Of a stretch of 48,811 bases of DNA, positions 1 to 48,811 are shown piece after piece. Where the stretch lies: IMG/VR virus record IMGVR_UViG_2706794677_000013; one strand, written 5' to 3'. The stretch is from a virus (taxonomy: Duplodnaviria; Heunggongvirae; Uroviricota; Caudoviricetes). The stretch's first letter is position 1, and the number at the start of each line of letters is the position of its first letter. A program made the translations under genes and the position numbers. Below the pieces are notes generated by a model that ran no database searches, had not been told where the DNA came from, and was given only the letters and a program-made list of their open reading frames with translations.

Positions 1-1236
1 CTACGATAACCGCGCATTCAACATGGCTACCTGTTCGTCGTTCATGTCATCAATCCACATACCGTAAATTTCATACACCATCTGCGCAGTTTCATGCCCC
101 ATCTGGCTGGCTATAAACGCCGGGTTCGCTCCTGCCGTCAACAGCCAGCAGGCAAAAGTATGCCGCGTATGGTACGGATTACGGCGGCGAATACCAGCAC
201 GTTTTACTGCTGCATTCCATCTCGCACCCAAACTGCTTACCGAGTAATAAGGTTTCTGTTTTCCGTTACACACTCTGGGCATGAAAACAAAATGCAGTTT
301 TTGCTTTTCGGTTCTGCCGTACTCCCGATGATAAAAAGTGATTTCGCTTTTGCGATGATGCCCGGTCAGTTTGTATTGCTCCTTCAGTGCTTCAAGAGCA
401 GGCTGCAGTAGTGTTACCGTCCGGATCCCCGCATTTGTTTTTGGGGGACCGAACATATCCAGTATCGTCAGGTTTCTTCTGACATTCACAACTCCCTTCT
501 CGAAATCCACATCCTCCCACGCCAGAGCAGCCAGTTCCCCGTGACGAAGCCCGGAGTATACGGCAAATTTCCACAAGTTCTGGCTCTGTCCTTTTTCACT
601 TTCCATTAATGCATTGAATTCTGTTTTAGATAACGGGTCAGGCTTTATTCTGTTTCTCTGTAATTTCTTTACTCCTTCAAATGGTTTGGTTGATATAAAT
701 CCCGACTGATACGCAAAACGTAACAACGAACAGAGCAGGGCGATATAGTTATCAACTGTGCGCACGGTTCTTCCTTTTTTGTTGGATCTTGGATTATCCA
801 GGTAAAGCGTTTCTCCATGCAGCAGTTCATTCCGGTAGTTTAAGATATCGCTATAACGAATATGCGATATCGGAGTACTCTCACAAATTATTATCCTGAG
901 TGTTTTTAATTGTGATTTCGTTTTCTTCATTGTGTTTGTTGTTAACTCTGTTTCTTTAATTTTTGTCCAGATATCACAAAGCTCCCCGAACGTTTTTATG
1001 ACCCTCGTTGTCACCATTTTTGCCCCAGTGCTGGACTGGGGAAAACGTCTTAAATACTCAAACTCACCGGAATTGATTTCATGAACTATCAACGCTCTTA
1101 AATTCCCGGCTTTTTTAATGTTACTGTTAGTAACCTCCCAGCCTTTCAATGTTTCCCGACATCGTTTTCCTCGAAACATGAACCAGATGCGAATGTATTT
1201 ACCTCGAATCTCGACACCTGTTGGTAATTTAGACAT
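1..1236 (-). CDS. intR: Phage tyrosine integrase (Rac IntR-like), 411 aa, complete; stop codon at window positions 1..3
   Basis: Full-length minus-strand ORF; translation recognised as Rac-type integrase with C-terminal R..HxxR..Y-type region (RHTFACW, Y near C-terminus); sits at the prophage end next to an excisionase-like ORF. Confidence 0.88.
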   Translation of the reverse strand: MSKLPTGVEIRGKYIRIWFMFRGKRCRETLKGWEVTNSNIKKAGNLRALIVHEINSGEFEYLRRFPQSSTGAKMVTTRVIKTFGELCDIWTKIKETELTTNTMKKTKSQLKTLRIIICESTPISHIRYSDILNYRNELLHGETLYLDNPRSNKKGRTVRTVDNYIALLCSLLRFAYQSGFISTKPFEGVKKLQRNRIKPDPLSKTEFNALMESEKGQSQNLWKFAVYSGLRHGELAALAWEDVDFEKGVVNVRRNLTILDMFGPPKTNAGIRTVTLLQPALEALKEQYKLTGHHRKSEITFYHREYGRTEKQKLHFVFMPRVCNGKQKPYYSVSSLGARWNAAVKRAGIRRRNPYHTRHTFACWLLTAGANPAFIASQMGHETAQMVYEIYGMWIDDMNDEQVAMLNARLS

Positions 1237-1237
1237 A

Positions 1238-1453
1238 TCATGAGTCTTTGATAAACTGATTTATCTTTGGATAGTTATACCAGATAATCCCTCGCTTACT
1301 GTCTGGCTTCCCTAAAGGAGATACTCGTTTGAAGTGGAAGCCTTCCACCCAACAGTTCTGGCGGTATGCTTCAATTTGTCTGGCCCCCAGACCAGTGCGA
1401 AGCATCAGGCCGTATTCAACCATCCACTCTTCATTAAAGATTACTTGTGCCAT
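1238..1453 (-). CDS. Excisionase-like small protein (Rac XisR/YdaQ-like); start taken at [10 protein letters not shown], alternative upstream start at 1477
   Basis: Small ORF immediately upstream of the integrase on the same strand; sequence recalled as Rac excisionase-like protein. Confidence 0.55.
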
Positions 1454-1655
1454 CGCATCACCTCTGGCAGGCGCCAATGTTAGACTTAAATTGACGCCCG
1501 ATGTTGATTATTAATAATCAGCTATGAAGTTTTAATTTGAATACAATGCAATTCACGAGGACTGAAGTTTCTCGCAATTAAAATTTATCAGTTTTACTTT
1601 CTGCTCTCTGGAAACGCCTGCTTCTTTTTTACCTGAGAGCATTTTTTCGCATTCT

Positions 1656-1911
1656 NNNNNNNNNNNNNNNNNNNNNNNNNNNNNNNNNNNNNNNNNNNNN
1701 NNNNNNNNNNNNNNNNNNNNNNNNNNNNNNNNNNNNNNNNNNNNNNNNNNNNNNNNNNNNNNNNNNNNNNNNNNNNNNNNNNNNNNNNNNNNNNNNNNNN
1801 NNNNNNNNNNNNNNNNNNNNNNNNNNNNNNNNNNNNNNNNNNNNNNNNNNNNNNNNNNNNNNNNNNNNNNNNNNNNNNNNNNNNNNNNNNNNNNNNNNNN
1901 NNNNNNNNNNN
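1656..1911. other. Run of 256 N (assembly gap or masked sequence) interrupting a minus-strand small ORF between xis and recT
   Basis: Literal n characters in sequence. Confidence 1.
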
Positions 1912-1985
1912 TAACATTGTCATATCTCATAATTTTTCTCATAAAAATATTTCAAGTTGGCGGTGCATTACACCGCCAGGCTGAA

Positions 1986-2795
1986 TTATTCCTCTGAATT
2001 ATCGATTACACTGTATTCCCCGGTTAATACAGAGGAATCTGCAGGATCGATTGTCAGTGGTTCCTTTTCATCCATTGATACTGCACGCTGGATCTCAATT
2101 GATACGGGCAGATATTTGAACAGGCGACGAATAGCCGTTTTCTTTGCCATTTCTTCCCAGTGAGTTACCCACGGCCCGTTATTACCAGCTTTACTCTGGC
2201 TGCGCACCAGCTCAATCTGTTTGCGCGTCATAACTTCAAACTGAGTACCTCCGTCTTTCAGTCTTGCGACAGCATAGACGTGGGTAACAGGGGCATCTTC
2301 GTTTTCTCCTGGGCGGTGTATTAACTTTTCATCAAGGCCAAATTCGAAATTAAACTCGTCACCTTCACGGACAACACGGGCTGACAGGCTGGCGATTTGA
2401 CCTGAACGGCGAGCCAGATCAATCATGCCGCGATAGCCAATGATTAGCTGAACGTTTTTTTTACCGCTCTTTTCGTTTTTATTACCAAAAGGCAGTAAAT
2501 ATGCATGACCGAGGGCGCTACCGGGCTCAAGTCCGAGCTGTGAACACTGTACGATTGCACTGACAAAACTCATAGTGTCACAGTTTCCTAACGCCGGAAC
2601 TTTACGAATTTCTGTGGTGGCGATACGGATCATACGTTCAGCCGTCATATGGCGTGGAAGAGCTGCTGCCAGTTGCTCTTTCATTGATGGCTGGTTAATA
2701 AAACTAATCACGTCGTTATTTTTAATTGCTGCTGGTGCACGGTTTCCCTGAGTTTTTTGCAGATCGGCTTTTGCGATTGGTGGTTGCTTAGTCAT
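1986..2795 (-). CDS. recT: RecT single-strand annealing recombinase, 269 aa (start at MTKQPP)
   Basis: Translation matches RecT as I recall it; directly downstream of and overlapping recE. Confidence 0.9.
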
Positions 2796-5388
2796 TTGCA
2801 TATTCCTTAGCCCAGCGGGGCAGTGATAACGTCTTAATAGCTGGCCATTCATCGGTATTGAGGCAGTCAGCCAGGGTTCGCAGATTGCGGTGATATTCCA
2901 GCTGACCTGCCAGTTTTGCTTCTTCGCCCATCATGAAAATTTCAACCGGATAACGTCCGCATTCAATAGTTGTGCTGGCAACCAGAAAAACGAAAGTTGG
3001 CTGCACTCCAAACTGTGCTTCATAACCGTCACTGTAGAATGCATCCTGAACGTGATAGCGGTAGTCGTAATAAGCGGTTTTGAATCGTTGAATATCCGCC
3101 GTAGTTTTCACGTCCATGATCCAGTGAAATTCAGGGATAATTTTGTCCGGACGGCACCGACACAAAATTGCTGTTTCAGGATCTTCCCAGTAAATTGATG
3201 ATTCAGCGTGTCCGGCGCTTTCAACAAGCCATTGCCCCAGCGGCAAAGCCATAACGCTCTGATACATGAGTTCAATTTTCCGGCCTTCTTCGGCAGTGAT
3301 AACCGTTTTTCCTGTGCTTGCGCATTCCCTCAGAAACGCTTTCTCTTCTTCTTTTCCGGAGTTTGTCCGGCGGTTAAATTCAGGTGCTACGATAAAGCGG
3401 TTACTGAATTCTTCCGGCTCAAGTACCCGGCAGTGGAAAGCGGTTCCTAAATCGAGCGTTTTTGTCTTTGTGGTGTCCACGGGGGCATTTTTACGCCACA
3501 AATACAGTGCCGGAGTATCAGCAATGTCATCGAGCTGAGACTTACTGACACCGGGACCCGCGTGGTAATTCTCATTCGAAATTCCGTAATAAATACCTGG
3601 CTCTATGTCTTCTACGATTACGGGATCTGCGACTTCGCCAGTTTCATCACTGCAATCGCGATGCGGATCGCTGCCAGCATTCTCATTGTGCGGATGTTCA
3701 GCGCCTTCCATTTCCTCCGGATCATTTTCCTTAGCTTCAACCTGACTCTCTTCATCGAATGTTTCCTGGTATGTTGCGTCGCCCATCACCGCACCACAGT
3801 CAGGGCAGTTATCCCCGCCAGTCTGGCCGCAGGCATTGCAGGCTATTTCCGGTTCCTGTTGCACTACTGGCTCAGGTTGATTCATATCCGGGCTGGTTTT
3901 TTCCGTTTCTGGCTGGTTCTGGTACACACAATCGCGAGTCTGGATCCCCTTTACCCATTTCGGATCGTTCGGGTCGCTAATTCCGTCAACAAATTCACCA
4001 CGTGATGCAGCAAGCAATTTATCGGCATCGACAGGATTTTTTGATGGAATGTTTTTCCGGGCTTCATGGAGTTCTGCCCGCAGTTCCTGATATTTCGCAT
4101 CAACAGAATTTACCTGTGACTGAGCATCCAGCGGCTGCGTGTCCTGATGATGTTCAGTTGCGTCCGGTTCCATTGTTTCAGCCTCTCCCTGTTCAACTGC
4201 CGTTGTTCCAGATGGTTGCGGTTTTTCTTCATCATCCTGTTTTCCTTCTTCTGTTACTCGCTGCGGCATCGGGGCAGAGGAGCGACCGCAGGCAATATCC
4301 ACGATTTCCGGATCAGGGTTGGCATGATCGGTTTCAGTCAGTACTTTGTTCAGATATTCAGTGACGTGCGCGGGGATGACCTCGATCCCAATTGGTGCTT
4401 CTTTTACGGACGCAACCACGATGGCGCGGGAATAATCCAGCCCGCCAGGCATGGTGATGAATTTGTCGCGGAAAACAGAAAAGGGCGGTTTATTTTCAGC
4501 GATAATTTCCTCAATGCGTTTAGCGTGTGCCGGATGAAGGTTATAGATGTCCAGATCCATTGAACGGGCCAGTACGCCAGTGGCTACGTCCCGCGCCAGT
4601 GACGTCAGATCGTGTACGAAACCTTCGCCGCGATCGGTGAGGTTTCCGCCGCCAGCATTAGCACCGGAAGCCGTGCGAGTGATGTGTGAAACACGATTAC
4701 CCTTCATCCACTCTTTTGTCAGCAGTCCTCGATCGGTGTAGTCAGCGTTCAGGTATGCTTCGAAAAAAGCAGTTATCAGTCCCAGGTTTGAATTACCAGG
4801 ATTAGGGAAAACTTTGTCAGTGTCACGAACCAGTTTGTGGAGTTCGCGAATTTCCAGCGGGTCGAGCAGGCTGGTTTTGTGGGAAACAGCCAGGGCAGTA
4901 ACAGCCGGTAGTTCTTCAGCCCGAGCAATGTGTAATGCCTGGAGTCCGTCGCGTGAAACGTGCGTTACCGGTTTTTCGCTGCCGTGTTGAGCAAGCCAAC
5001 GAATGGGCAGTTCCTGGCCAGAAATTGGGAGTAGCATATTCTCCTCAATCTCAGTCATGTCTTCGCCGTTGACGTTGGTATTGCCTTGATAGTGAGCGTT
5101 GTCTGGTGCTGCTCCCGGTTTTAGTTCCCATGTCATGGAGTCTTTGCTGAGTTGATAGCGTTCACTCCAGGTAAAATCGATCTCACCTTCAGCGGGCAGG
5201 TCATTAACGACAGGAAAATTCGTGGCAACAGCTTTAAAATAGCTGCTCAGTTTTTTACCTGACTTAACGATCAGGTAGTCCAGAGTGGCACAGGTCGATT
5301 CAAAATCGTTGCTTGCCCACAGGACGACGTCAGGTTCACCGGATGATTTTTTCGCTTTCCGTAACAGGAAGAGTGGTTTTGTGCTCAT
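2788..5388 (-). CDS. recE: RecE exonuclease VIII, 866 aa
   Basis: 866-aa ORF with acidic/Cys-rich central region and C-terminal nuclease domain, immediately upstream of recT on the same strand (recET operon arrangement). Confidence 0.88.
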
Positions 5389-5489: not shown

Positions 5490-5765
5490 TCAGATTTCAC
5501 CTTTTAATTTCATTGCAATTAGAGTTGCCAGAAATTCGGCTTTTTTTTCTGCGGGCAGATTCTTTCCGATATGCACCAGGCACATTTTTTTGACACCTTC
5601 ATCAAGTGTTTTTACGTTGCCTGATGGACCATCGATATCAACCACAGTGAATGGGGTTTCTTTATTTTCTGTTTTAATTACGTAGCCAATGCGCTTTCCT
5701 TCCAGATTCACCTCGTGAACAATGTCATCGGTAGTTACAACAGTGGCTTCATAATTGGTAATCAT
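5490..5765 (-). CDS. racC: RacC-like small protein, 91 aa (start at MITNYEA)
   Basis: Position upstream of recE and sequence recollection. Confidence 0.7.
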   Translation of the reverse strand: MITNYEATVVTTDDIVHEVNLEGKRIGYVIKTENKETPFTVVDIDGPSGNVKTLDEGVKKMCLVHIGKNLPAEKKAEFLATLIAMKLKGEI

Positions 5766-5839
5766 GTTTTTCTCCTTAATTAAGGTTGAGCGAATACCTG
5801 CCATTTCTGGCATAAATTCAGTTTCGAATAGTCAATTAA

Positions 5840-6010
5840 TTAAAGTTCATGTGCCATCTGGTCTTTTTCGGCACAAGCTTCACTGCAATATTTTCTCGGT
5901 TCGTCTTTTGATAAAATCCCGTGCATGAAGTGAAGCATTCTTTCAATAGCTTTGCTTTCTTCAACGTCTTTTTTGCAAAGGTGGTAAGCACATTTTATTT
6001 TCTTAGTCAT
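5840..6010 (-). CDS. ydaE: YdaE-like 56-aa Cys-rich (zinc-binding-type) protein
   Basis: Hand translation of the reverse complement gives [56 protein letters not shown]; its ATG overlaps the kilR stop (ATGA); below the 60-aa cutoff of the ORF track. Confidence 0.6.
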   Translation of the reverse strand: MTKKIKCAYHLCKKDVEESKAIERMLHFMHGILSKDEPRKYCSEACAEKDQMAHEL

Positions 6011-6231
6011 CACCATGACTCCGCCTTTACAGGTAAACCATCACGACCGAGGAAGACTTTAATCATGCGGTCAGTAATGCATGTTTTTGTGGTCAGGTTA
6101 CGAATATATAGTTTTCGCTTTTTAATATTGTTTGCCGAGGCAATATATGTCCGGCCTTCATGAAGAACATAATCGCCAGGAGTCACACACTGACGTGGTA
6201 TTTCATCAGTTCCGAAGTGATGTGCAATCAT
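6010..6231 (-). CDS. kilR: KilR-like cell-division inhibitor, 73 aa (start at MIAHHF)
   Basis: Sequence recollection of Rac KilR; location between sieB and racC. Confidence 0.8.
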
Positions 6232-6672
6232 AATTATCTCCATTTTTACAAATGAACTTTGTTGATGCGGTGCCTGGTGCCTCCAGGTGACTGCAACCAG
6301 TTAACAATTACAGTCGGCTTTCCCACCCAAACCAATAAGGACTAACATGACTTTTAACTGTGCCACGTGCGCTTAGCCGCATTCACCGCATCACAAAATT
6401 CACTTTAAAAAGGGCGGACATCAGCCGAACTTCAAGAAAAAAACTGATGCCGCCAGGACTACACACAGCAATGTCGTTATTTACAACCGGAGGCGCACTC
6501 CCACCATTTAAATTTAACAGACAAGACCGACTCTTTATGGATATCGGAAATGCGCCTTCGTGTTGTGCCCGGTTTTATTTCACCACCTCCGGGCTTCGGT
6601 GGTCTCGGCTATACCCCTACAGCGAGAGCTTGTGTTAACATTTCAATACCCTTACAGTTGAGAGTTATTGAT

Positions 6673-7161
6673 ATGTTGGATGTATTTACTCCATTGTTGA
6701 AACTTTTTGCTAACGAGCCACTCGAAATACTTATGTATACGATTATCATTTTTGGTCTCACTCTCTGGCTGATACCGAAAGAGTTTACTGTCGCATTCAA
6801 TGCTTATACTGAAATACCTTGGCTCTTTCAGATTATCGTTTTTGCCTTTTCTTTCGTGGTCGCCATTTCCTTCTCAAGATTGCGAGCACATATTCAAAAG
6901 CATTATTCATTACTACCAGAGCAACGAGTATTGCTTCGTTTATCTGAGAAAGAAATCGCTGTATTTAAAGATTTCCTTAAAACAGGAAATCTTATTATCA
7001 CTTCTCCTTGCCGTAACCCGGTTATGAAAAAATTAGAACGGAAGGGCATCATTCAACATCAGAGTGATAGCGCAAACTGTTCTTATTATCTCGTCACCGA
7101 AAAATACTCCCATTTTATGAAGTTATTCTGGAACAGCAGGAGTAGACGTTTTAATCGTTAG
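6673..7161 (+). CDS. sieB: SieB-like superinfection exclusion protein, 162 aa (start at MLDVFTP), membrane protein
   Basis: Hydrophobic N-terminal half; sequence recollection of SieB; ATG verified by frame from the ORF track. Confidence 0.8.
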   Translation: MLDVFTPLLKLFANEPLEILMYTIIIFGLTLWLIPKEFTVAFNAYTEIPWLFQIIVFAFSFVVAISFSRLRAHIQKHYSLLPEQRVLLRLSEKEIAVFKDFLKTGNLIITSPCRNPVMKKLERKGIIQHQSDSANCSYYLVTEKYSHFMKLFWNSRSRRFNR

Positions 7162-7323
7162 CTTACTGTGTGCTTCTCCAACCATCGGCGCGCACCAGTT
7201 TCGGTTTTAAATGTTTTGCTTTTGGTATACGTCATGGCAGTGAACGTTCCATCCTGGTTGGGGAACACGCCGCACACCAGGGATTCGTTGTTGCCGAGGT
7301 CGATTTTTTGCATTTTGCGAATC

Positions 7324-7458
7324 TCACATCTTGTTGCTGTGTATAGCGACTTCTGCCTGCCAGAGATCCCAGTCGTTGCTGCGTAAAGCCTGCACAGCCT
7401 GGTTGTAAGTGATACCGCAACAATCCATCAAATACTGAACTACTTCGTAATGCACCAT
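7324..7458 (-). CDS. Small YdaF-like ORF (start at MVHYEV)
   Basis: Short minus-strand ORF in the region between sieB and racR; weak recollection only. Confidence 0.3.
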   Translation of the reverse strand: MVHYEVVQYLMDCCGITYNQAVQALRSNDWDLWQAEVAIHSNKM

Positions 7459-7748: not shown

Positions 7749-8186
7749 TTAAGAGGCTTTTTGTTTTTTCTTTCGTGCTAGCTCTTCGTAAATTGCATTG
7801 TACTTCTGTTTTTTCTCCTCAAGAGTTTTTAAAAGTTCATCTGTCTCACTGTCAGGGAGCTCGTCCAGAAGGTCAATGATGATTTTTTGTCTTGGATTTA
7901 ACTCCTGATAGAAACGTACCTGTCCACTTTCTTCTGTATCCTCTCCCAAAAGATAGGTTGGTGTTGTTCCAATGAGTGTTGCTAATTCCCTTAATTTCTC
8001 TCGGCGAGGAATTGTTTCGCCATTAAACCATTTGCTAACCGCTTTTGGTGTTAATTTCATTCGACGGGCAATTTCTGCCTGCCTTCCATGTTGTTCATAA
8101 CCAGCGTTTTCACAGGCTAGCGCAAGCCTACTGGCGAACTCTTTACGCGCTTTATCTTCATGAACCATAAGTTCAATGATATTCAC
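7749..8186 (-). CDS. racR: RacR-like prophage repressor, HTH (Xre-type) N-terminal domain
   Basis: HTH-like segment (QAEIARRMKLTPKAVSKWFNGE); divergent from the ydaS-ydaT operon. Confidence 0.7.
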   Translation of the reverse strand: MNIIELMVHEDKARKEFASRLALACENAGYEQHGRQAEIARRMKLTPKAVSKWFNGETIPRREKLRELATLIGTTPTYLLGEDTEESGQVRFYQELNPRQKIIIDLLDELPDSETDELLKTLEEKKQKYNAIYEELARKKKQKAS

Positions 8187-8247: not shown

Positions 8248-8502
8248 ATGAACCAGAAAACACTTGAAGATGTAATCAAAACTGTTCGCGTTTCTGTTGT
8301 GGCCGACGTTTGTGGTGTCAGCCAAAGAGCAATCTACAAATGGATGGATAACGGAAAATTGCCTCGCACAGAATATACCGGCGAAACAAATTACGCTGAA
8401 AAAATCGCTCATGCATCAAACGGATTATTTTCTGCTGATGTAATTTTAACTATTGGCAGAAATAAAACTACTACGAAAAAGCTGATGGGAGTTGATTCAT
8501 GA
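8248..8502 (+). CDS. ydaS: YdaS-like Cro-type HTH protein (start at MNQKTLED)
   Basis: Small HTH protein (VCGVSQRAIYKWMDNGKLP) first in the rightward operon; ATG at 8248 preceded by gtgaggg. Confidence 0.7.
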   Translation: MNQKTLEDVIKTVRVSVVADVCGVSQRAIYKWMDNGKLPRTEYTGETNYAEKIAHASNGLFSADVILTIGRNKTTTKKLMGVDS

Positions 8503-9797: not shown

Positions 9798-10224
9798 ATG
9801 AAAAATATTGCGACAGGCGACGTTCTTGAACGTATCCGCAGACTGGCCCCGTCACATGTAACCGCGCCATTCAAGACGGTAGCGGAGTGGCGCGAGTGGC
9901 AACTTTCCGAAGGCCAGAAACGTTGTGAGGAGATCAACCGTCAGAATCGTCAGTTGCGGGTGGAAAAAATTCTGAATCGCTCTGGCATCCAGCCATTGCA
10001 CCGCAAATGCTCGTTTTCGAATTACCAGGTGCAGAACGAAGCGCAGCGATACGCGTTGAGTCAGGCGAAATCCATCGCTGATGAACTGATGACCGGGTGT
10101 ACAAATTTTGCGTTCAGCGGAAAACCTGGTACCGGGAAGAACCACTTAGCGGCAGCTATCGGGAATCGCCTGCTGAAAGACGGTCAGACAGTGATTGTGG
10201 TTACCGTGGCTGATGTTATGAGCG
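9798..10224 (+). CDS. ydaV: YdaV-like DnaC/IstB-family helicase loader, 5' part only (runs into N gap)
   Basis: Walker A motif GKPGTGKNHLAAAIG; ORF truncated by N run at 10225. Confidence 0.75.
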
Positions 10225-10474
10225 NNNNNNNNNNNNNNNNNNNNNNNNNNNNNNNNNNNNNNNNNNNNNNNNNNNNNNNNNNNNNNNNNNNNNNNNNNNN
10301 NNNNNNNNNNNNNNNNNNNNNNNNNNNNNNNNNNNNNNNNNNNNNNNNNNNNNNNNNNNNNNNNNNNNNNNNNNNNNNNNNNNNNNNNNNNNNNNNNNNN
10401 NNNNNNNNNNNNNNNNNNNNNNNNNNNNNNNNNNNNNNNNNNNNNNNNNNNNNNNNNNNNNNNNNNNNNNNNNN
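10225..10474. other. Run of 250 N
   Basis: Literal n characters. Confidence 1.
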
Positions 10475-10694
10475 GCGTTAATTCAGGTTGGATGGCTGGT
10501 CGAAAATGACGGAGGGCTTTCTCTACCTAACTTTGAACGTCATAACGGAAAAAGCTCTAAAAAAAACGGGCGGTTACAAACGAGCGAGTAACAAAAATAC
10601 GCGAACTGAAACGAAAAGGTAACGCTGCCAGCGTTACACAAACGGATCAAAAAGCGTTACCAGAGGAAGAGGAAGAGGAAGATCTAAATACTGA

Positions 10695-11030
10695 TCTCCC
10701 CCTCGCCAAAAACGAGCGTCTAAAAAATTCGAGCCGGAGGCTATTGAGCTGCCCGATTGGTTGCCGGAAACACTCTGGCATGAGTGGGTCCGGTTCAGAC
10801 AGGCATTGCGAAAACCGATTCGAACGGAGCAGGGCGCTAACGGGGCGATACGGGAACTGGAAAAATTCCGTCAGCAGGGTTTTACACCTGAGCAGGTGAT
10901 TCGACACAGCATCGCCAATGAATACCAGGGCCTGTTCGCGCCGAAAGGTGTTCGGCCTGAGACGTTGCTCCGACAGGTTAACACCGTCTCGTTGCCGGAC
11001 AGTGCGATCCCGCCAGGCTTCAGGGGGTAA
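10695..11030 (+). pseudogene. Second, diverged copy of the YdaU-like C-terminal region (fragment; in-frame TGA immediately upstream at 10692..10694)
   Basis: Translation ...KKFEPEAIELPDWLPETLWHEWVRFRQALRKPIRTEQGANGAIRELEKFRQQGFTPEQVIRH... is near-identical to the C-terminus of the 8934..9791 protein. Confidence 0.5.
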
Positions 11031-38350: not shown

Positions 38351-38398
38351 TTTTCCGTTATTCCTCCTGTGGTACTGCCCTACAGGGGGACGCATTGA

Positions 38399-38860
38399 AT
38401 GAGGTTATGGATGTTTATTCTTAATCAGAAAATTATCATTGGTGGAGAACGCTGGTTTACGCCAATGAAGGACTTAAAACCTGTAGACGGGTTAAAACTG
38501 TTGGTGGCAAGCAGCGATAACGATCAGTATCGCTCCCGTAATGCATTAATCCGTCGCCACATTGAGAAAATGGATGCCAGTTTGCACGTCGGAACGAAGG
38601 AGTTTGATATTTCAAAGGTTTCCGAGGTGGATTCTGTTGATGATTTACTCATTGATAATGCCGCTCGTTATCTGCTGAAAGACTGGAAAGGGGTTGGTGA
38701 ACTGGTTAATGGTGTTGAGGTTGCACTGGAATATACGGCAGAACGAGGGATCGCGCTGCTTAAGCAGAATCCAGAGTTGTACTGGCAGATCCTTGCAGAA
38801 GCAGCCAGCATCGCCCAGGGTAAAGAGCAGCAGAAGCAGGATACGATAAAAAAGCCATAG
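38399..38860 (+). CDS. Tail assembly chaperone (lambda G-like)
   Basis: Position directly upstream of the tape measure; ends just after a slippery A AAA AAG site. Confidence 0.7.
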   Translation: MRLWMFILNQKIIIGGERWFTPMKDLKPVDGLKLLVASSDNDQYRSRNALIRRHIEKMDASLHVGTKEFDISKVSEVDSVDDLLIDNAARYLLKDWKGVGELVNGVEVALEYTAERGIALLKQNPELYWQILAEAASIAQGKEQQKQDTIKKP

Positions 38861-39168
38861 CTGCCCAGCGGTGGTTATCGGAGTTCGGGGGAGAAAGGGG
38901 GGAAAAGGCAAGATGGAAGCGAGAAAAACTCAGGTTGCCACCGATACCGGAACCAGAAATAGACCCGGTGCTTAAGGAGTTGTTGTACGCCTATTCGGTA
39001 ATATCCCGTGCCCGACGTTATGCTGGAATGGCTGGGGTGCCTTTGCCTTTATCTCTGACAGAGATAAATGAATATTTAGCCACTCATCCGGTATTGATTG
39101 AGCGCGATGAATTTGAAGCAGTGATCTTTGCACTGGATGACCAGTATTTTCAGGAGCAGTGTGTGTAG
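38399..39168 (+). CDS. Tail assembly chaperone frameshift product (lambda GT-like) made by -1 frameshifting at A AAA AAG (38848..38854)
   Basis: The -1 frame is open from the slip site through to 39168 and continues the 38935..39168 ORF; frame arithmetic checked by hand. Confidence 0.6.
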
Positions 39169-39333: not shown

Positions 39334-42300
39334 ATGGCAGAGCAAACCTCGCGTCTCGCAATAATTATTGATAGCACTGGAGCGAAAAATAATGCTGACA
39401 ATCTGACCTCCTCATTAGTCAAAATGACGCAGGCTGGGGAAACTGCTGCAAATAGCGCAGGGAAAGTGACTAAGGCAACAGAAGATGAGAAGAACGCGCT
39501 CGCAAAATTAAAAGCAGCTATTGATCCAGTTGGTGCCGCAATTGATACTGTCGGTCGACGCTATTCTGAATTAAAGAAATTTTTCGATAAAGGGCTTATT
39601 GATAAAGAAGAATATGAATTTCTTGTCCGTAAACTTAATGAAACCACAGAGGAATTGAGCGGGGTTGCGCAAGCGCAGAGAGAAGCCGAGAAGGCCGGAA
39701 AACTTGCTGCCGCCCAGCAGGAAGCGCAGGCTCAGGCCTTTCAAAGAATGCTGGACAAGATCGACCCTCTGGCTGCGGCGCTAAGAAATCTTGAACAACA
39801 GCATGATGAACTTAATGCTGCGTTTGCATCCGGGAAAATAAATGGTTCTCAGTTTGAGAATTATAGCCGAAAAATACAGGAAACACGGCGAGAGCTTACC
39901 GGAGAGGCTCAGGCAGAGCGAGAAGCAGCAAAAGCGCATGATGAACAGGTTGTTGCTTTGCAACGTCTGATTGCTCAACTTGATCCTGTCGGAACTGCTT
40001 TTAATCGTCTGGTAGAACAACAGAAACAGCTCAATGAAGCAAAAGCTAAGGGGATGCTTTCTCCTGAAATGTATGAGGAGCTTTCTGGAAAACTTCGTGC
40101 TATGCGGAGTGAGCTTGAGGTTACTCAATCACAATTAAGCAAAACCGGAATGTCGGCAAAACAAACGGCTTTTGCTATGCGCATGTTGCCTGTACAAATG
40201 ACGGATATTGTTGTTGGGTTGTCCACTGGTCAGTCGCCATTTATGGTGTTAATGCAGCAGGGCGGCCAGCTAAAAGATATGTTCGGTGGGATTGGCCCGG
40301 CGATCAAAGGTGTAGGTTCTTATGTGCTGGGATTAATTAATCCTTTTACCCTGGCCGCAGCAGCCGTTGGGGTCTTAGGACTGGCTTACTATAAAGGCTC
40401 TCAGGAGCAGGACGAATTTAATAAATCTCTTATTCTTACCGGAAATCAGTTGGGGACAACCAGCGGGCAATTGGGCGATATAGCTCAACGTGCCGGGAAT
40501 GCGGCTGATTCGACAACTGGTGCTGCGGCGGCAGTATTAAATCAGCTTGTGCGTTCGGGAAAGGTAGCGAGCAGTTCGCTGGAGCAAGTGACGACAGCGA
40601 TAGTAAAAACGAGCGAAGTAACAGGAATATCAACCGAACAACTGGTTAATGACTTCAATGAAATTGCAAAGGATCCTGTCAGTGCCATATCAAAACTTAA
40701 TGATCAGTACCATTTTCTGACACTTGCGACTTATAACCAGATTAAGGCGCTACAGGATGAAGGGAACCAGCAGGAGGCCGCCCGCATTGCGACAGAAGAA
40801 TACTCATCCTCAATGATCCAGCGCACCAACCAGATTAAAGAAAATCTTGGTTATCTTGAGACTGCATGGAAAGCTGTCGCAGACTCCGCAAAATGGGCAT
40901 GGGATTCCATGCTGGATATTGGCCGTGAGGCCTCCCTTGATCAAAAAATCTCAGATGTTCTCCGTCAAATTGATGAAATAGAAAAAAATACCCGACCCGG
41001 AGTTTTCGGGTTAGGTGGCATTGGAGATGGCGGAGCTCAAAATAAAAGGCTGGCACGATTAAAGCAGCAATTGGGCGTACTTCAAGCAGAAAAAATTGCT
41101 CAGGACGTACTAAATTCATCAATAAACGATTACAACAAGCGACAACAGGAAGGAATTGAACTCAGACAGAGAGCAGATGCCTTTTCAAAACAATATCAGA
41201 CCCGGGAGCAGCAGAGAGCTAGTGAACTTGCAAAACTGGAAAAGCTAAAGAATCAGTATTCAAAGGAAGAATATAATAATCTTATCGCTCAAATAAATGA
41301 GCGTTATAAAGATCCAAAGCAACCAAAGGCGAAAGGTTATTCTGATGATGCAGCCCAACGAATGATTGATCATCTGAATCAACAGAATGCGTTACTAAGT
41401 TCACAAGCTGAGTTGACCGTTAAATTAAGTTCCTCTGAACAGGAACTGGTTAAGTGGCGTCAGCGGATTGCCGACCTAGAGTCACGACCATCATCGAAAT
41501 TAACCCAGGATCAGAAATCGCTTCTCTTACACCGGGAAGAAATAACCACGTTGATGGAGAAAAATGTTGCGATTGAAAAAAATAACAGGCTAATCAAGGA
41601 ATCCGCCGAAATAACAGCATGGCGTGATTCATTGCAGGCTTCGATTGATAATCGTCAGCAGGGGTATGATATTCAGATTGCTGGTTATGGGGTTGGCGAT
41701 AAAAATCAGCAACGCCAGCAGGAATTACTGCGGATTGAACATGGATATAACAATCAGCGTCTGCAACTTGAACGTGACTATGCAGATAAATCCCGTGGAA
41801 TGTCAGATCATGTTTTTCAAGAGAAAATGCAGGCTCTGAATGATGCTCTGGAACGGGAAAAAGAAATTGTCAGACAGAAAAACGAGCAGCTCGATATTCA
41901 GGCAGGAGACTGGGTTAGTGGTGCCTCCCAGGGATTCAATAACTGGCTGGATGACACTAAGGATATCAGTGAGCAGATAAAATCAACCACGACTCAGATG
42001 TTTGATGGGATGACCGATGCGCTGGGTGATTTTGTCACGACAGGCAAGGCAAATTTTCGTTCTTTCGCTACTTCCGTGATTTCGGATCTTAGTCGAATAG
42101 CATTAAAGGCTTCAATTACTGGGATTTTCGACAGCATTAGTAACAGTTCTTCTGGGGGGATTTTAGGAACTATCGGGAGTGCTATTAGTAAATTTATTCC
42201 GAATGCAAAGGGCGGTGTTTATGAGTCTCCGTCATTGAGCACGTATTCGAACGGTATTTATGATTCCCCGCAATTTTTTGCTTTTGCAAAAGGGGCTGGT

Positions 42301-42567
42301 GTTTTTGGTGAGGCTGGACCGGAAGCCATTATGCCATTAACACGAACTTCCGATGGTTCTCTTGGTGTCAGAGCTATTAATAGTAAAAGTGGTAATGGAG
42401 GCGGAGATATTACCTATGCCCCTGTATACCAAATCACTATTCAAAATGACGGCCAGAATGGAGAGATTGGCCCTCAGGCAATAAAAGCACTTATGGGGAT
42501 GGTTGATCAGCGGGTGCAGGGCAATCTGTTAAATATGCGACGTGATGGGGGAATGTTAAGTGGCTAA
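39334..42567 (+). CDS. Tail tape measure protein, 1077 aa
   Basis: Very long, coiled-coil-rich N-terminal half, Gly-rich C-terminal part; position. Confidence 0.85.
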
Positions 42568-42898
42568 TACGGAAGAATTTCACTGGTTACCAGAGGATGG
42601 AATGAAAACAGAAAATAAACCATCGATAAAAACTGTAAGATTTGGTGATGGTTATGAGCAACGAAGTCCAAATGGACTTAATCATTCTCTGCGCGTTTTC
42701 ACCTGTGATTTCAAAGTTGAGGCGAATGAACGTGATTCATTTGAAAAATTTTTAGCCCGGCATGAAGGCTATAAATCTTTTTTTTGGCGCCCGCCGGGTA
42801 TTAACAGAAAAATCAGAGTGGTGTGTCGAACGTGGTCAGCGACAGAACATATCACCTATACCGATTTTTCGTGTCAGTTTGACGAAGTGGTGATCTGA
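42560..42898 (+). CDS. Minor tail protein, lambda M-like
   Basis: [16 protein letters not shown] and ...FDEVV match my recollection of lambda gpM. Confidence 0.8.
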
Positions 42899-43596
42899 TG
42901 CAGGACATACAACAGGAAACGCTGAATGAATGCATTCGTGCGGAGCAGTCGGCCAGCGTGGTGCTCTGGGAAATCGACCTGACCGAGGTAGGCGGGGATC
43001 GCTACTTTTTCTGCAATGAGCAGAACGAGAAAGGAGAGTCTGTCACCTGGCAGAGTCGGCAGTATCAGGCCTATCCCATTCAGGGGAGTGGATTTGAGAT
43101 GAACGGCAAAGGTGCCAGTGCAAGGCCAACGCTGAAAGTCTCTAATCTGCACGGCATGGTCACCGGGATGGCGGAAGACCTGCAGAGTCTGGTCGGCGGA
43201 ACGGTGGTCAGGCGTAAGGTTTACGCCCGTTTTCTGGATGCGGTGAACTTCGTCAACGGAAACAGTGACGCCGATCCGGAGCAGGAGGTGATCAGCCGCT
43301 GGCGTATTGAGCAGTGCAGCGAACTGAGCGCGGTCAGTGCCTCCTTTGTACTGTCCACGCCGACGGAAACGGACGGCGCTGTTTTTCCGGGGCGCATCAT
43401 GCTTGCTAATACCTGCACCTGGACCTATCGCGGTGATGAGTGCGGTTATCACGGTCCGGCTGTCGCGGATGAATATGACCAGCCAACGTCCGATATCACG
43501 AAGGATAAATGCAGCAAATGCCTGAGCGGTTGTAAGTTCCGCAATAACGTCGGCAACTTTGGCGGCTTCCTTTCCATTAACAAACTTTCGCAGTAA
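42898..43596 (+). CDS. Minor tail protein, lambda L-like, 232 aa
   Basis: Size and Cys-rich C-terminus (CSKCLSGCKF) as in lambda gpL. Confidence 0.8.
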   Translation: MQDIQQETLNECIRAEQSASVVLWEIDLTEVGGDRYFFCNEQNEKGESVTWQSRQYQAYPIQGSGFEMNGKGASARPTLKVSNLHGMVTGMAEDLQSLVGGTVVRRKVYARFLDAVNFVNGNSDADPEQEVISRWRIEQCSELSAVSASFVLSTPTETDGAVFPGRIMLANTCTWTYRGDECGYHGPAVADEYDQPTSDITKDKCSKCLSGCKFRNNVGNFGGFLSINKLSQ

Positions 43597-43601
43597 ATCC
43601 C

Positions 43602-44344
43602 ATGACACAGACAGAATCAGCGATTCTGGCGCACGCCCGGCGATGTGCGCCAGCGGAGTCGTGCGGCTTCGTGGTGAGAACACCGGAGGGGGAAAGATAT
43701 TTTCCCTGCGTGAATATTTCCGGTGAGCCGGAGGAGTATTTCCGGATGGCTCCGGAGGACTGGCTGCAGGCAGAGATGCAGGGTGAGATTGTGGCGCTGG
43801 TCCACAGCCACCCCGGTGGTCTGCCCTGGCTGAGTGAGGCCGACCGGCGGCTGCAGGTGCAGAGTGATTTGTCGTGGTGGCTGGTCTGCCGCGGGGCGAT
43901 TCACAAGTTCCGCTGTGTGCCGCATCTCACCGGGCGGCGCTTTGAGCACGGGGTGACGGNNNNNNNNNNNNNNNNNNNNNNNNNNNNNNNCTGGCGGGAA
44001 TTGAGATGCCAGATTTTCATCGTGAGGACGACTGGTGGCGTAATGGTCAGAATCTCTATCTGGATAATCTGGAGGCTACAGGGCTGTATCAGGTGCCGTT
44101 GTCAACGGCGCAGCCGGGCGATGTGCTGCTGTGCTGTTTTGGTTCATCGGTGCCGAATCATGCCGCCATTTACTGTGGTGACGGCGAGCTGCTGCACCAT
44201 ATTCCTGAACAACTGAGCAAACGAGAGAGGTATACCGACAAATGGCAGCGACGCACACACTCCCTCTGGCGTCACCGGGCATGGCACGCATCTGCCTTTA
44301 CGGGGATTTGCAGCGATTTGGCCGCCGCATCGACCTTCGTGTGA
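43602..44344 (+). CDS. Tail assembly protein, lambda K-like (JAB/MPN + NlpC/P60), interrupted by a 31-N run; exact end uncertain
   Basis: HSHPGG JAB-type motif in the first half; C-terminal half with a Cys/His catalytic-like region; frame changes across the N run. Confidence 0.7.
43960..43990. other. Run of 31 N inside the K-like gene
   Basis: Literal n characters. Confidence 1.
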
Positions 44345-44889
44345 AAACGGGGGCCGAAGCCATCCGGGCACTGGCCACACAGCTCCCGGCATTTCGTCAG
44401 AAACTGAGCGACGGCTGGTATCAGGTGCGCATTGCCGGGCGTGATGCAGGCGAAAATGAATTATCTGCCCGTCTTAATGAACCGCTGGCAAATGGTGCCG
44501 TGATCCACATCGTTCCGCGTCTGGCGGGTGCCAAAAGTGGCGGTGTGTTTCAGGCGGTGCTGGGTGCGGCGCTGATTGCGGTGGCATGGTGGAACCCTGT
44601 GGGCTGGCTGGGGGCCGCGGCTGTATCGGGTATGTATGCAGCAGGGGCCAGTATGATCCTGGGTGGTGTGGCGCAGATGCTGGCACCGAAAGCCAGGACG
44701 CCCACGGCAGCCAGTACAGATAACGGCAAACAGAACACGTATTTCTCGTCACTGGATAACATGGTTGCCCAGGGTAATGTTCTGCCTGTTCTGTACGGGG
44801 AAATGCGCGTGGGGTCACGTGTGGTTTCTCAGGAGATCAGCACGGCAGACGAAGGGGATGGTGGTCAGGTTGTGGTGATTGGTCGCTGA
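44242..44889 (+). CDS. Tail assembly protein, lambda I-like, 215 aa
   Basis: MAATHTLPLASPGMARICLYGDLQRFG... and C-terminus matching lambda gpI as recalled. Confidence 0.8.
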   Translation: MAATHTLPLASPGMARICLYGDLQRFGRRIDLRVKTGAEAIRALATQLPAFRQKLSDGWYQVRIAGRDAGENELSARLNEPLANGAVIHIVPRLAGAKSGGVFQAVLGAALIAVAWWNPVGWLGAAAVSGMYAAGASMILGGVAQMLAPKARTPTAASTDNGKQNTYFSSLDNMVAQGNVLPVLYGEMRVGSRVVSQEISTADEGDGGQVVVIGR

Positions 44890-44949
44890 TGCAAAATGTT
44901 TTATGAGAAACCGCCTGCGGGCGGTTTTGTCGTTTATGGAGCGTGAGGA

Positions 44950-47900
44950 ATGGGTAAAGGCAGCAGTAAGGGGCATACCCCGCGCGAAGCGAAGGACAAC
45001 CTGAAGTCCACGCAGCTGCTGAGTGTGATCGATGCCATCAGTGAAGGGCCGGTTGAAGGTCCGGTGGATGGATTAAAAAGCGTGCTGCTGAACAGTACGC
45101 CGGTGCTGGACAATGAGGGGAATACCAACATCTCCGGCGTCACGGTGGTGTTCCGGGCAGGTGAGCAGGAGCAGTCACCGCCGGAGGGGTTTGAATCCTC
45201 CGGCTCCGAGACGGTGCTGGGTACGGAAGTGAAATATGACACGCCGATCACCCGGACCATCACGTCGGCAAACATCGACCGTCTGCGCTTTACCTTCGGT
45301 GTACAGGCACTGGTGGAAACCACCTCAAAGGGAGACAGGAATCCGTCGGAAGTCCGCCTGCTGGTTCAGATACAGCGTAACGGTGGCTGGGTGACGGAAA
45401 AAGACATCACCATTAAGGGCAAAACCACCTCGCAGTATCTGGTCTCGGTGGTGGTGGATAACCTGCCTCCGCGCCCGTTCAGTATCCGGATGCGCAGGAT
45501 GACACCGGACAGCACCACAGACCAGCTGCAGAACAAAACGCTCTGGTCGTCATACACCGAAATCATCGATGTGAAACAGTGCTACCCGAACACTGCACTG
45601 GTCGGCGTACAGGTGGACTCGGAGCAGTTCGGCAGCCAGCAGGTGAGTCGTAATTATCATCTTCGCGGGCGCATTCTGCAGGTGCCGTCGAACTATAACC
45701 CGCAGACGCGACAATACAGCGGTATCTGGGACGGAACGTTAAAACCAGCATACAGCAACAACATGGCCTGGTGTCTGTGGGATATGCTGACCCACCCGCG
45801 CTACGGCATGGGGAAACGTCTTGGTGCGGCGGATGTGGACAAATGGGCGCTGTATGTCATCGGCCAGTACTGCGACCAGTCAGTGCCGGACGGCTTTGGC
45901 GGCACGGAGCCGCGCATCACCTGTAATGCGTACCTGACCACACAGCGCAAGGCGTGGGATGTGCTCAGTGATTTCTGCTCGGCGATGCGCTGTATGCCGG
46001 TATGGAACGGGCAGACGCTGACGTTCGTGCAGGACCGACCGTCGGATAAGGTGTGGACCTATAACCGCAGTAATGTGGTGATGCCGGATGATGGCGCGCC
46101 GTTCCGCTACAGCTTCAGCGCCCTGAAAGACCGCCATAATGCCGTTGAGGTGAACTGGATTGACCCGGATAACGGCTGGGAGACGGCGACAGAGCTTGTG
46201 GAGGATACGCAGGCCATTGCCCGTTACGGTCGTAACGTCACGAAGATGGATGCTTTTGGCTGTACCAGCCGGGGGCAGGCACACCGCGCCGGGCTGTGGC
46301 TGATTAAAACAGAACTGCTGGAAACGCAGACCGTGGACTTCAGCGTGGGCGCAGAAGGGCTTCGCCATGTGCCGGGCGATGTCATTGAAATCTGTGATGA
46401 TGACTATGCGGGTATCAGCATCGGCGGGCGCGTGCTGGCGGTAAACAGCCAGACCCGGACGCTGACGCTCGACCGTGAAATCACGCTGCCATCCTCCGGT
46501 ACCATGCTGATAAGCCTGGTTGACGGAAGTGGCAATCCGGTCAGCGTGGAGGTTCAGTCCGTCACCGACGGCGTGAAGGTGAAAGTGAGCCGTGTTCCTG
46601 ACGGCGTTGCTGAATACAGCGTGTGGGGGCTGAAGCTGCCGACGTTGCGCCAGCGCCTGTTCCGCTGTGTGAGTATCCGTGAGAACGATGACGGCACGTA
46701 TGCCATCACTGCCGTGCAGCATGTACCGGAAAAAGAAGCCATCGTGGATAACGGGGCGCACTTTGACGGCGACCAGAGCGGCACGGTGAATGGTGTCACG
46801 CCGCCAGCGGTGCAGCACCTGACTGCCGAAGTCACCGCAGACAGCGGGGAATATCAGGTGCTGGCGCGCTGGGACACGCCGAAGGTGGTGAAGGGGGTGA
46901 GCTTTATGCTTCGCCTGACCGTGGCAGCGGATGACGGCAGTGAGCGGCTGGTCAGCACGGCCCGGACGACGGAAACCACATACCGCTTCACGCAACTGGC
47001 GCTGGGACGGTACACGCTGACAGTCCGGGCGGTAAATGCCTGGGGACAGCAGGGCGATCCGGCGTCGGTATCGTTCAGGATTGCCGCACCGGTAGCACCG
47101 TCGCGGATTGAGCTGACGCCGGGCTATTTTCAGATAACTGCCACGCCGCATCTTGCGGTTTATGATCCGACGGTACAGTTTGAGTTCTGGTTCTCGGAAA
47201 CGCGGATTACCGATATCAGGCAGGTTGAAACCACAGCCCGCTACCTTGGCGCGGGGCTGTACTGGATAGCCGCCAGTATCAATATCAAACCGGGCCATGA
47301 TTATTACTTTTATATCCGCAGTGTGAACACCGTTGGCAAATCGGCATTCGTGGAGGCCGTCGGTCGGGCGAGCGATGATGCGGAAGGTTACCTGGATTTT
47401 TTCAAAGGCAAGATAACCGAATCCCATCTCGGTAAAGAGCTGCTGGAAAAAGTTGATCTGACGGAGGATAACGCCAGCAGACTGGATGAGTTTTCGAAAG
47501 AGTGGAAGGACGCTAACGATAAATGGAATGCGATGTGGGGCGTCAAAATTGAGCAGACCAAAGACGGCAAACATTATGTCGCGGGTATTGGCCTCAGCAT
47601 GGAGGACACGGAGGAAGGCAAGCTGAGCCAGTTTCTGGTTGCCGCCAATCGTATCGCGTTTATTGACCCGGCAAACGGGAATGAAACGCCGATGTTTGTG
47701 GCGCAGGGCAACCAGATATTCATGAACGACGTGTTCCTGAAGCGCCTGACAGCCCCCGCCATTACCAGCGGTGGCAGTCCTCCGGTATTTTCCCTGACAT
47801 CAGACGGAAAGCTGACCGCTAAAAATGCGGATATCAGTGGTAGTGTGAATGCGAACTCAGGAACGCTCAACAATGTCACGATTAACCAGAACTGTACGAT

Positions 47901-48363
47901 TAAGGGCATGCTGGAGGCGACCCAGGTCAGAGGGGATTTCGTTAAAGCTGTATCAAAAGCCTTCCCGAAAAAAGTCGGTACGTGGGGTAACACGGAAACA
48001 CCAGACGGTACGGTTACAGTCACCATCAGCGATGATCATAACTTTGACCGCCAGATTATTATTCCGCCCATTATTTTTAACGGTATAGCGTATGACGATC
48101 CGGGGAGCGGAAATAACCCGGGAGGCACGCGATACACGGGTTATGGTTTTGAAGTTCGCAAAAACGGCGTATTAATCGCATCCAGAGAAACTAAAGGGGC
48201 CATTCCCGGTAGTTACAGTGCAGTTATTGATATGCCTAGTGGTGGTGGTAGCGTCACTCTGGAGTTTAAGATTTTCCAGAAAGGCAATCAGGGGGCAGGC
48301 AATATCACCGACTGTACGGTGATTGTGACCAAAAAAGCGGCTTCCGGCATCAGTATTCGTTGA
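44950..48363 (+). CDS. J: Host specificity / central tail fibre protein, lambda J-like, 1137 aa
   Basis: Size, position after I, and sequence recollection of lambda gpJ. Confidence 0.88.
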
Positions 48364-48385
48364 AATATTTATAACCCCAATAAAT

Positions 48386-48409
48386 GGCGTCAGGAATGAC
48401 GCCTTTTTT
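48386..48409 (+). terminator. Intrinsic terminator after J
   Basis: ggcgtca ggaa tgacgcc hairpin followed by tttttta. Confidence 0.6.
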
Positions 48410-48433
48410 ATTGCAGAAAAGCGAGAGGTAATT

Positions 48434-48811
48434 ATGCGTAAAGTTTGTGCCGCCATTTTGTCCGCAGCCATTTGTCTGGCCGTATCCGGTGCGCCTGCAT
48501 GGGCGTCTGAACATCAGTCCACGCTGAGCGCGGGGTATCTTCATGCCCGGACCAACGTTCCCGGCAGTGATGATCTGAACGGGATTAACGTGAAATACCG
48601 TTATGAGTTTACGGATACGCTGGGGCTGGTGACGTCATTCAGCTATGCAGGAGACAAGAATCGCCAGCTGACCCGTTACAGCGATACCCGCTGGCATGAA
48701 GATTCCGTGCGTAACCGCTGGTTCAGCGTGATGGCGGGGCCGTCTGTGCGCGTGAATGAATGGTTCAGCGCGTATGCGATGGCGGGTGTGGCTTACAGCC
48801 GTGTGTCGACT
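48434..48811 (+). CDS. lom: Lom-family outer membrane protein, 3' end beyond the window
   Basis: Signal peptide MRKVCAAILSAAICLAVSGAPAWA followed by beta-barrel-like sequence; ATG preceded by gagagg. Confidence 0.8.
   Translation, partial: MRKVCAAILSAAICLAVSGAPAWASEHQSTLSAGYLHARTNVPGSDDLNGINVKYRYEFTDTLGLVTSFSYAGDKNRQLTRYSDTRWHEDSVRNRWFSVMAGPSVRVNEWFSAYAMAGVAYSRVST

Follow-up and report, generated by a model that had tools for sequence, protein, structure and literature searches.

A Rac-family lambdoid prophage region that spans the stretches missing from Escherichia coli K-12 Rac

That the Rac element of Escherichia coli K-12 is a deleted lambdoid phage is a long-established idea. Larger members of the family are on record: full-sized Rac-like lambdoid prophages have been described (Jobling, PMC5917428); the Rac-like Sp10 and CP-933R have been reported at ttcA (Liu et al., PMC4632033); and a review describes Rac as incomplete in K-12 and intact in EDL933, with the Rac locus being occupied in 69% of strains (PMC6379469). 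The size and content of Rac are variable, while recE and trkG are conserved (Krishnamurthi et al., PMC5700373). Here we compare these elements with a stretch of 48,811 nucleotides (nt) from the IMG/VR virus record IMGVR_UViG_2706794677_000013, hereafter the window, whose GC content is 47.1% with runs of N excluded. The window very probably covers ~44 kb of an E. coli lambdoid prophage of the Rac family, which is some 52 kb long in full and belongs to those that insert at the ttcA 5' end.

Identity of the window and the deletions of K-12 Rac

A megablast of the two window halves against 5,426 complete E. coli genomes recovered near-identical matches for both, the late half being covered over at least 80% of its length in 680 of these genomes (about one in eight). 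In NCTC10444 (NZ_LR134092.1, ~2711.3-2763.9 kb) both halves are adjacent within a single annotated prophage of ~52.5 kb, which runs from intR, adjoining ttcA, to tfaR and sitABCD, adjoining uspF, and at whose two ends the K-12 attL and attR sequences are found. It shares 99.8-99.97% nt identity with the window up to K, lacks a 4.4-kb block that the window has in ydaV, and is the longer of the two, continuing through stf, tfa and sitABCD to attR. When its 54 proteins were searched against the window with tblastn, 50 found a match, 44 of them complete and identical; the non-identical remainder are cut by runs of N or by the window end, or are the DUF1627 protein, the tape measure (99.9%), J (97.1%) and lom (95.2%), within a range of 95-99.9%. 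The tfaR, tail fibre and ralR proteins had no tblastn match in the window and a ydaC-like open reading frame (ORF) was partly matched, these lying outside the window or under a gap. We also observed that the att-bounded prophage includes sitABCD, placed after tfaR and before attR, both in NCTC10444 (locus L001, 3318-8024) and in the GenBank record ON032529 (locus L180, 28143-31592).

A blastn comparison of the K-12 segment NC_000913.3 1411000-1436000, in which Rac occupies 1411899-1434958, with the window returned eight collinear blocks of 95.4-99.9% nt identity, comprising every spanned K-12 block except the immunity genes:

window 1-1655: K-12 intR-xisR, 96.9%
window 1912-7624: K-12 ralR end to ydaG, 99.2%
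window 8493-10222: K-12 ydaT-ydaU-ydaV 5' part, 99.4%
window 14720-15393: K-12 ydaV 3' part-ydaW 5' part, 95.4%
window 24507-24932: K-12 rzpR/rzoR, 98.4%
window 25200-26951: K-12 trkG-ynaK, 99.5%
window 38509-40268: K-12 ydaY-ynaA, 99.9%
window 48636-48811: K-12 lomR, 98.3%

K-12 Rac lacks window positions 15394-24506, 26952-38508 and 40269-48635 (9.1, 11.6 and 8.4 kb) as three internal deletions and, because K-12 blocks flank each missing stretch, it can be read as the same backbone with three deletions. The junctions map to the base at 15393/24507, 26951/38509 and 40268/48636, and the flanks share 2 nt in each case (TA, AA and CA), a microhomology as expected of illegitimate deletion. For 80-nt probes spanning two of the junctions, full coverage was obtained in ~335-348 complete genomes, with many laboratory K-12 strains among them. 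K-12 Rac further differs in carrying racR/ydaS in place of an Sp10-type repressor/cro pair, IS5 in lom, and pinR and ynaE where its relatives have sitABCD. This base-level map of the three deletions is a practical product of the comparison. The left arm (int, xis, recET, kilR, sieB) is common to K-12 Rac and to Sp10 of O157 Sakai, and the replication genes and the entire late region are the undeleted form of what K-12 keeps as the fragments rzpR/rzoR, trkG, ynaK, ydaY, ynaA and lomR.

The gene set within the window looks complete, in that predicted modules of every kind are present from int to J, and the visible ORFs are those of NCTC10444. The left edge of the window is the intR stop codon and the right edge is lom codon 126 of 199; as it runs only between these points, both att sites, stf and tfa are missing from it, and ttcA, the rest of lom and any right-end cargo likewise lie outside. 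IntR and XisR are in the window itself, and ttcA and the Rac att repeats are found only through the near-identical NCTC10444 prophage. ttcA/attL would be expected ~50 nt to the left of position 1, and to the right the remainder of lom followed by stf, tfa, perhaps sitABCD, and attR. Several points weigh against the reading of the window as such a prophage with a full gene set: the att sites and side tail fibre genes are beyond its edges; gaps conceal ydaV, K, the 3' end of Rz, the 5' end of trkG and the ralR region, and lesions may lie beneath them; the assignment of Q comes from a DUF1133 match and a borderline Phage_antitermQ match; the late promoter and terminator are consensus matches; and an isolated virion with this late module was not found in public records.

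The first-pass annotation had described the window as an apparently complete and perhaps intact relative of K-12 Rac. Its undeleted state is borne out by the K-12 matches on both sides of three clean deletions; completeness and intactness are not, given that both ends are absent and four genes are interrupted by N runs of untrue size. The whole-window alignment to K-12 Rac that it had proposed is collinear at the identities listed above and places the early region firmly as Rac-like: intR, recET, racC, ydaE, kilR, sieB, ydaT and ydaU are intact as it had named them, but racR and ydaS are absent and ydaV is split by gaps. It was also right to place trkG between Rz/Rz1 and ynaK, as in K-12, and to recognize a Q-like gene (the DUF1133 protein, with its borderline Q match) followed by a full phage 21-type lysis cassette, since the S21 holin, SAR-like endolysin and Rz/Rz1 were all found. 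The packaging, head and tail genes that it had traced through J and lom are there from TerS, TerL, portal and capsid to J, with the qualification that K is broken by a gap and lom is represented by 126 of its 199 codons.

Gaps, immunity and competing readings

The window contains seven N runs that total 1,305 N: 1656-1911, 10225-10474, 11326-11575, 14470-14719, 24445, 24933-25199 and 43960-43990. We considered that these might be size-true masks and rejected this, as five of the seven differ in length from the corresponding sequence of near-identical relatives: 11326-11575 is 250 nt versus 456, 24933-25199 is 267 versus 253, 1656-1911 is 256 versus 254, 43960-43990 is 31 versus 32 (yielding an apparent frameshift in K), and the single N at 24445 stands for ~10 nt. 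We conclude that they are assembly gaps. Because the runs are not size-true, ydaV, K, the end of Rz and the start of trkG cannot be judged, and the same caution applies to the breaks that they cause in the endolysin, in ydaV and K and at the 3' end of Rz. Three runs of 250 N bound and divide the one large stretch that NCTC10444 does not share with the window:

10225..14719, plus strand: gap-bounded foreign block, probably mis-scaffolded

The block holds the 3' part of an O-like gene, the 5' part of a second ydaV, a DUF977 gene, a Zn-ribbon ORF, queH (QueH by Pfam), hok/sok (sok by Rfam), a 95-codon ORF and the 5' part of a DUF1367 gene; the second ydaV is a diverged partial copy at 11037-11325. 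Its two pieces, 10475-11325 and 11576-14469, are 100% identical to the IMG/VR locus L130 and 98.5-99.9% identical to a prophage adjoining ybhA in FDAARGOS_944, and in both of these they form part of a longer run of O-like gene, ydaV, DUF977, queH, hok/sok and DUF1367, while in the window both start and stop in mid-gene. NCTC10444 has 120 nt between window positions 10222 and 14720, the 11 closest complete genomes are shorter by ~4,380 nt at this point, and the block is inside Rac in none of the 5,426 complete E. coli genomes. In all probability, the block is two contigs of a second prophage that were placed here by scaffolding. A comparison of the ydaV alleles shows that the contigs end 1-7 nt past the last allele-specific mismatch; such ends do not suit the k-mer overhang of a simple de Bruijn repeat break, which we therefore rejected, and they fit ambiguity-driven breaks. 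Scaffolding that used a reference or read mapping as its guide seems the more likely origin. Users of this record should take the content of 10.2-14.7 kb and the N-run lengths as assembly and not as biology.

Two other readings of the window bear on its assembly. In one, the 4.4-kb block is a real fragment of another prophage inserted in ydaV, so that the helicase-loader gene would be disrupted and the prophage defective in replication. The order given in the window speaks for such an event, as does the clean partition of the Rac ydaV, of which codons 1-142 precede the block and codons 183-248 follow it. We nevertheless hold it to be unlikely: all three junctions fall within N runs, the middle gap, 250 nt long, corresponds to 456 nt in the identical prophage, the pieces start and stop within genes, the 11 closest genomes lack exactly this ~4,380 nt and none of the 5,426 has the block in Rac, and no mechanism is known by which such a fragment would enter without homology at either end. 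In the other, the whole window is a chimeric assembly of a Rac early region with the late region of an unrelated prophage. A gapped scaffold with at least one probable misplacement invites this suspicion, but the complete genome of NCTC10444 has both halves contiguous at the identity given above and K-12 retains remnants of both in the same order, making a chimera highly improbable.

A third reading accepts the prophage with its full gene set but takes it to be grounded or domesticated: vertically inherited at ttcA, kept for cargo such as trkG, recET and sitABCD, and forming no infective particles now. The evidence on this hinges in part on the immunity region, which encodes the following:

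7749..8168, minus strand: prophage repressor of Sp10 type, 139 amino acids (aa), matching HTH_3 alone in Pfam, without an S24 peptidase domain
8248..8502, plus strand: Cro-like regulator, 84 aa, not YdaS, without a K-12 DNA match

The repressor is identical to Sp10 ECs_1941 at 138 of 139 positions. The K-12 racR/ydaS DNA (locus L003, 8620-9678) has no blastn match in the window, and the window repressor and Cro-like protein align with RacR and YdaS over the helix-turn-helix (HTH) motif only (E 1e-4 and 0.03). By its predicted proteins the immunity cassette is thus of the Sp10 (O157 Sakai) type and not RacR/YdaS. When the repressor was searched against Pfam for an S24 peptidase domain, only HTH families matched, and the Sp10 repressor has been reported to lack a peptidase motif as well (Asadulghani et al. 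2009, PMC2669165). In the same study mitomycin C did not increase the amount of circular Sp10 DNA; Sp10 nonetheless underwent spontaneous excision and packaging and carried a marker into K-12 at low frequency, and K-12 lysogens of Sp10 showed no particles (PMC2669165). By analogy, SOS induction of the window element by mitomycin would not be expected, and a mitomycin C test could be negative even with a functional phage, because the HTH-only repressor is 99% identical to that of Sp10, which is not induced. The first-pass suggestion that the element is possibly inducible hence needs to be qualified: the SOS route is disfavoured by the HTH-only repressor and by the lack of mitomycin C induction of Sp10, which did excise, undergo packaging and transfer. 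This correction of the immunity type makes mitomycin C the wrong assay for the window element.

Several of these observations would suit a grounded prophage: the repressor without a peptidase domain; the presence of this element at one and the same locus, with ~99% identity, in hundreds of genomes; the occupation of the Rac locus in 69% of strains, read as an old integration (PMC6379469); the K-12 lysogens of the related Sp10 without visible particles (PMC2669165); and the fact that no isolated phage has this late module, the nearest cultured one being HK639 with a capsid of 75% aa identity. On the other side, the structural ORFs are all intact and identical across independent genomes, which would be unexpected of long-dead genes, even though purifying selection on domesticated prophages has been proposed; and Sp10, which has the same left arm, still excises, is packaged and transfers. 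We regard grounding as a real possibility, falling somewhat short of probable. Public 'phage' records were considered as evidence of virions and rejected: the GenBank ON4706xx series and ON032529 carry this late module, and as ON470595 and ON032529 hold the host genes abgABT, ttcA, uspF, ompN and nifJ, they are in-silico prophage predictions. The record named 'Salmonella phage SPF_0923' consists of a Rac right half of E. coli-like sequence together with chromosomal DNA.

Gene modules and accessory genes

The early and replication genes of the Rac-family prophage in the window are as follows, with identity to NCTC10444 given at the protein level:

1..1236, minus strand: intR tyrosine integrase, 411 aa; 100% identical to NCTC10444; nt identity 96.9% with K-12 and 99.5% with Sp10
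1238..1453, minus strand: xisR excisionase; 71/71 aa identical to NCTC10444
1656..1911, no strand: N run over the ydaC(rcbA)/ralA/ralR region; 254 nt in K-12 and Sp10
1986..5388, minus strand: recT and recE (exonuclease VIII); 269/269 and 866/866 aa identical to NCTC10444; 99.2% nt identity with K-12
5490..7458, mixed strands: racC, ydaE, kilR (minus), sieB (plus), ydaF and a ydaG-like ORF (minus); 100% identical to NCTC10444
8499..9791, plus strand: ydaT (CII analogue) and ydaU (replication initiator); 100% identical to NCTC10444; 99.4% nt identity with K-12
9798..10224, plus strand: ydaV (DnaC-type helicase loader), codons 1-142 up to the gap; the 3' end resumes at 14720-14921
14944..16137, plus strand: ydaW-like DUF1627 protein and DUF977 protein; left edge of K-12 deletion 1 at 15394

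If the element works as lambdoid phages do, divergent early operons would be silenced by the HTH-only repressor. The leftward operon, when derepressed, would yield KilR, RecET, Xis and Int, and the rightward one the Cro-like protein, YdaT, the YdaU/YdaV replication pair and the Q-like protein. Transcription dependent on Q would then extend over the TolA-like morons, a pinholin/SAR-endolysin/spanin cassette and the trkG moron, and on through packaging, head and tail. A scan for tRNA genes found none in the window.

Between replication and packaging there is a region rich in accessory genes:

16336..19298, both strands: low-GC moron slot between DUF977 and DUF1367, with a HEPN (RiboL-PSP type) protein, a 333-aa protein and DUF1971 (minus)
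18936-19298, minus strand: DUF1971 gene in the low-GC stretch before DUF1367 (Pfam E 3e-26)
20088..21516, plus strand: DUF1367, YbcO nuclease and DUF1133 Q-like antiterminator candidate (Pfam; 100% aa identity to NCTC10444)
21887..21963, plus strand: promoter-like site followed by a terminator-like hairpin, from a consensus scan only, ~370-450 nt downstream of the Q-like gene
22264..23535, plus strand: STnc100 small RNA (86.6 bits in Rfam) and two ORFs, each having a TolA C-terminal domain (E 2e-23 and 1e-14 in Pfam)
23787..24932, plus strand: phage 21-type lysis cassette of holin, SAR-type endolysin broken by a single N at 24445, and Rz with Rz1 nested in it, the Rz 3' end being in a gap
24933..26560, plus strand: N run 24933-25199, then trkG codons 34-485, the first 33 codons being in the gap

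The moron at 16176-18315 has a GC content of 36-39% and its own promoter-like sequence, TTGACA / TGgTATAAT. The HEPN protein (320 aa) has an RNHLVH motif of the Rx4H form, its homologues are recognized by the Pfam families HEPN_RES_NTD1 and HEPN_RiboL-PSP, and it is a candidate abortive-infection effector. The 333-aa protein encoded after it shows a weak GNAT match, and neither of the two matches PADLOC. A conserved two-gene HEPN and GNAT-like defence system was entertained and dropped, as distant HEPN homologues occur alone in the ends of Aeromonas prophages and in other mobile elements. The Q-like protein has a DUF1133 match of E 2.5e-107, with Phage_antitermQ at 26.1 bits against a cut-off of 26, and the promoter-hairpin pair at 21887-21963 is a candidate for the late promoter and its Q-sensitive terminator. 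The small RNA and the TolA-domain ORFs (142 and 124-131 aa) occupy the interval from the Q-like gene to the holin, the slot in which toxin genes are found in Stx phages. As a speculation, the TolA-like proteins may be decoys against Tol-dependent phages or colicins.

In the lysis cassette, the holin belongs over its full length to the phage 21 S family (PF04971, E 2e-35), the endolysin matches Phage_lysozyme in Pfam (E 5e-41) and has an N-terminus of 27 residues that appears to be a signal-anchor-release (SAR)-like segment, and Rz (Pfam E 9e-51) has its final codons in the gap. Rz1 is a 61-aa ORF at 24707-24892, nested in Rz and with the lipobox-like motif LVVVGC. An S21-family holin, a SAR-type lysozyme and Rz/Rz1 are common to the lysis cassettes of phage 21 and DLP12, and the NCTC10444 copies are named essD and rrrD by PGAP; the phage 21-type assignment is made on Pfam family, sequence inspection and these annotation names, and not on a direct alignment with phage 21. 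The GC content of trkG is 37.9%, versus 47% for the window, and it is followed at 26647-26670 by a strong, terminator-like structure, a 10-bp GC-rich hairpin with a T run; together they have the layout of a putative moron inside the late operon.

The remaining late genes are arranged as follows:

26698..28598, plus strand: ParB-like YnaK (262 aa), overlapped by a glycosyltransferase-like protein of the TAGT family, and a 69-aa ORF; left edge of K-12 deletion 2 at 26952
28602..35590, plus strand: TerS, TerL, DUF4055 portal, MuF-like protein, DUF6651 scaffold and P22-coat-like major capsid (Pfam, PHROGs; 100% aa identity to NCTC10444)
35633..39168, plus strand: connectors, tail terminator, tail tube, tail assembly chaperone (ydaY) and an ORF downstream of it; right edge of K-12 deletion 2 at 38508
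39334..48363, plus strand: tape measure, M, L, K (with the 31-N gap 43960-43990), I and J; K-12 deletion 3 is 40269-48635
48434..48811, plus strand: lom, first 126 of 199 codons, to the window end

YnaK has 262 aa in the window versus the 87 kept in K-12. The gene of the TAGT family, at 27461-28411 (Pfam E 4e-34), overlaps ynaK, the pair being at window 26698-28411, and is directly upstream of TerS. In Lactobacillus phage phi jlb1 an overlapping YnaK/TAGT pair of ~43% aa identity immediately precedes the terminase genes, and in the haloarchaeal virus HHTV-2 such a pair lies ~3 kb upstream of TerL. A PDB sequence search with the TAGT-like protein returned nothing. From this arrangement it is conceivable, if doubtful, that YnaK and the TAGT-family protein, the latter resembling the T6 beta-glucosyl-HMC-alpha-glucosyltransferase, constitute a conserved packaging-linked module for glycosylation of DNA (or of the virion) that K-12 lost through deletion 2. 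If so, a prophage able to modify its DNA in an undescribed way would be present in approximately one of every eight E. coli genomes. In a separate observation, RefSeq labels ynaK of NCTC10444 (L001, 33239-33496) a truncated pseudogene, although the 262-aa ORF there is intact and identical to that of the window; the label looks like an annotation artefact from using the K-12 fragment as reference.

Pfam and PHROGs assign TerL to the Terminase_6 family and confirm the head-tail adaptor, head closure, neck, tail terminator, tail tube and chaperone genes. The predicted head module is of the P22-coat/HK639 type and not of the lambda type. Further downstream, the 31-N gap in K separates sequence of 99.97% identity to NCTC10444 from sequence of 96.6%, with the GC content rising to 53-61% through J (window 43960-48811); this change marks a recombination boundary in the tail-tip/host-range region.

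Comparison with known Rac-like elements

Sp10 of O157:H7 Sakai and CP-933R of EDL933 are likewise integrated at ttcA. Sp10 is 99.1-99.5% identical to window 1-8919, that is, from int to ydaT with the immunity region included; its replication genes are ~90% identical to those of the window and its tail-tip genes 72-76%. Its late region, by contrast, is unrelated, with HK97-like heads, another lysis cassette and no trkG. Rac-SA53 (KU052037), which belongs with other full-sized Rac-like prophages that encode LT-II, shares the left part from intR through recET to ydaU at ~92% identity over 36% of the left half. It does not figure among the best matches for the late half of the window, and the window has no LT-II or pertussis-like toxin genes. 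The LF82 prophage Perceval was considered as a relative at ttcA with sit genes and set aside, the 'ttcA' match in the paper being a primer string.

For the head module the nearest cultured phage is HK639 (NC_016158), with 75% aa identity in the major capsid protein; its early genes and regulation differ from those of the window and it has no trkG. The Rac-family prophage represented by the window is an already known element, whose full-sized form is present in the literature and in hundreds of complete genomes; as a common, annotated prophage of E. coli it is of little importance as a discovery.

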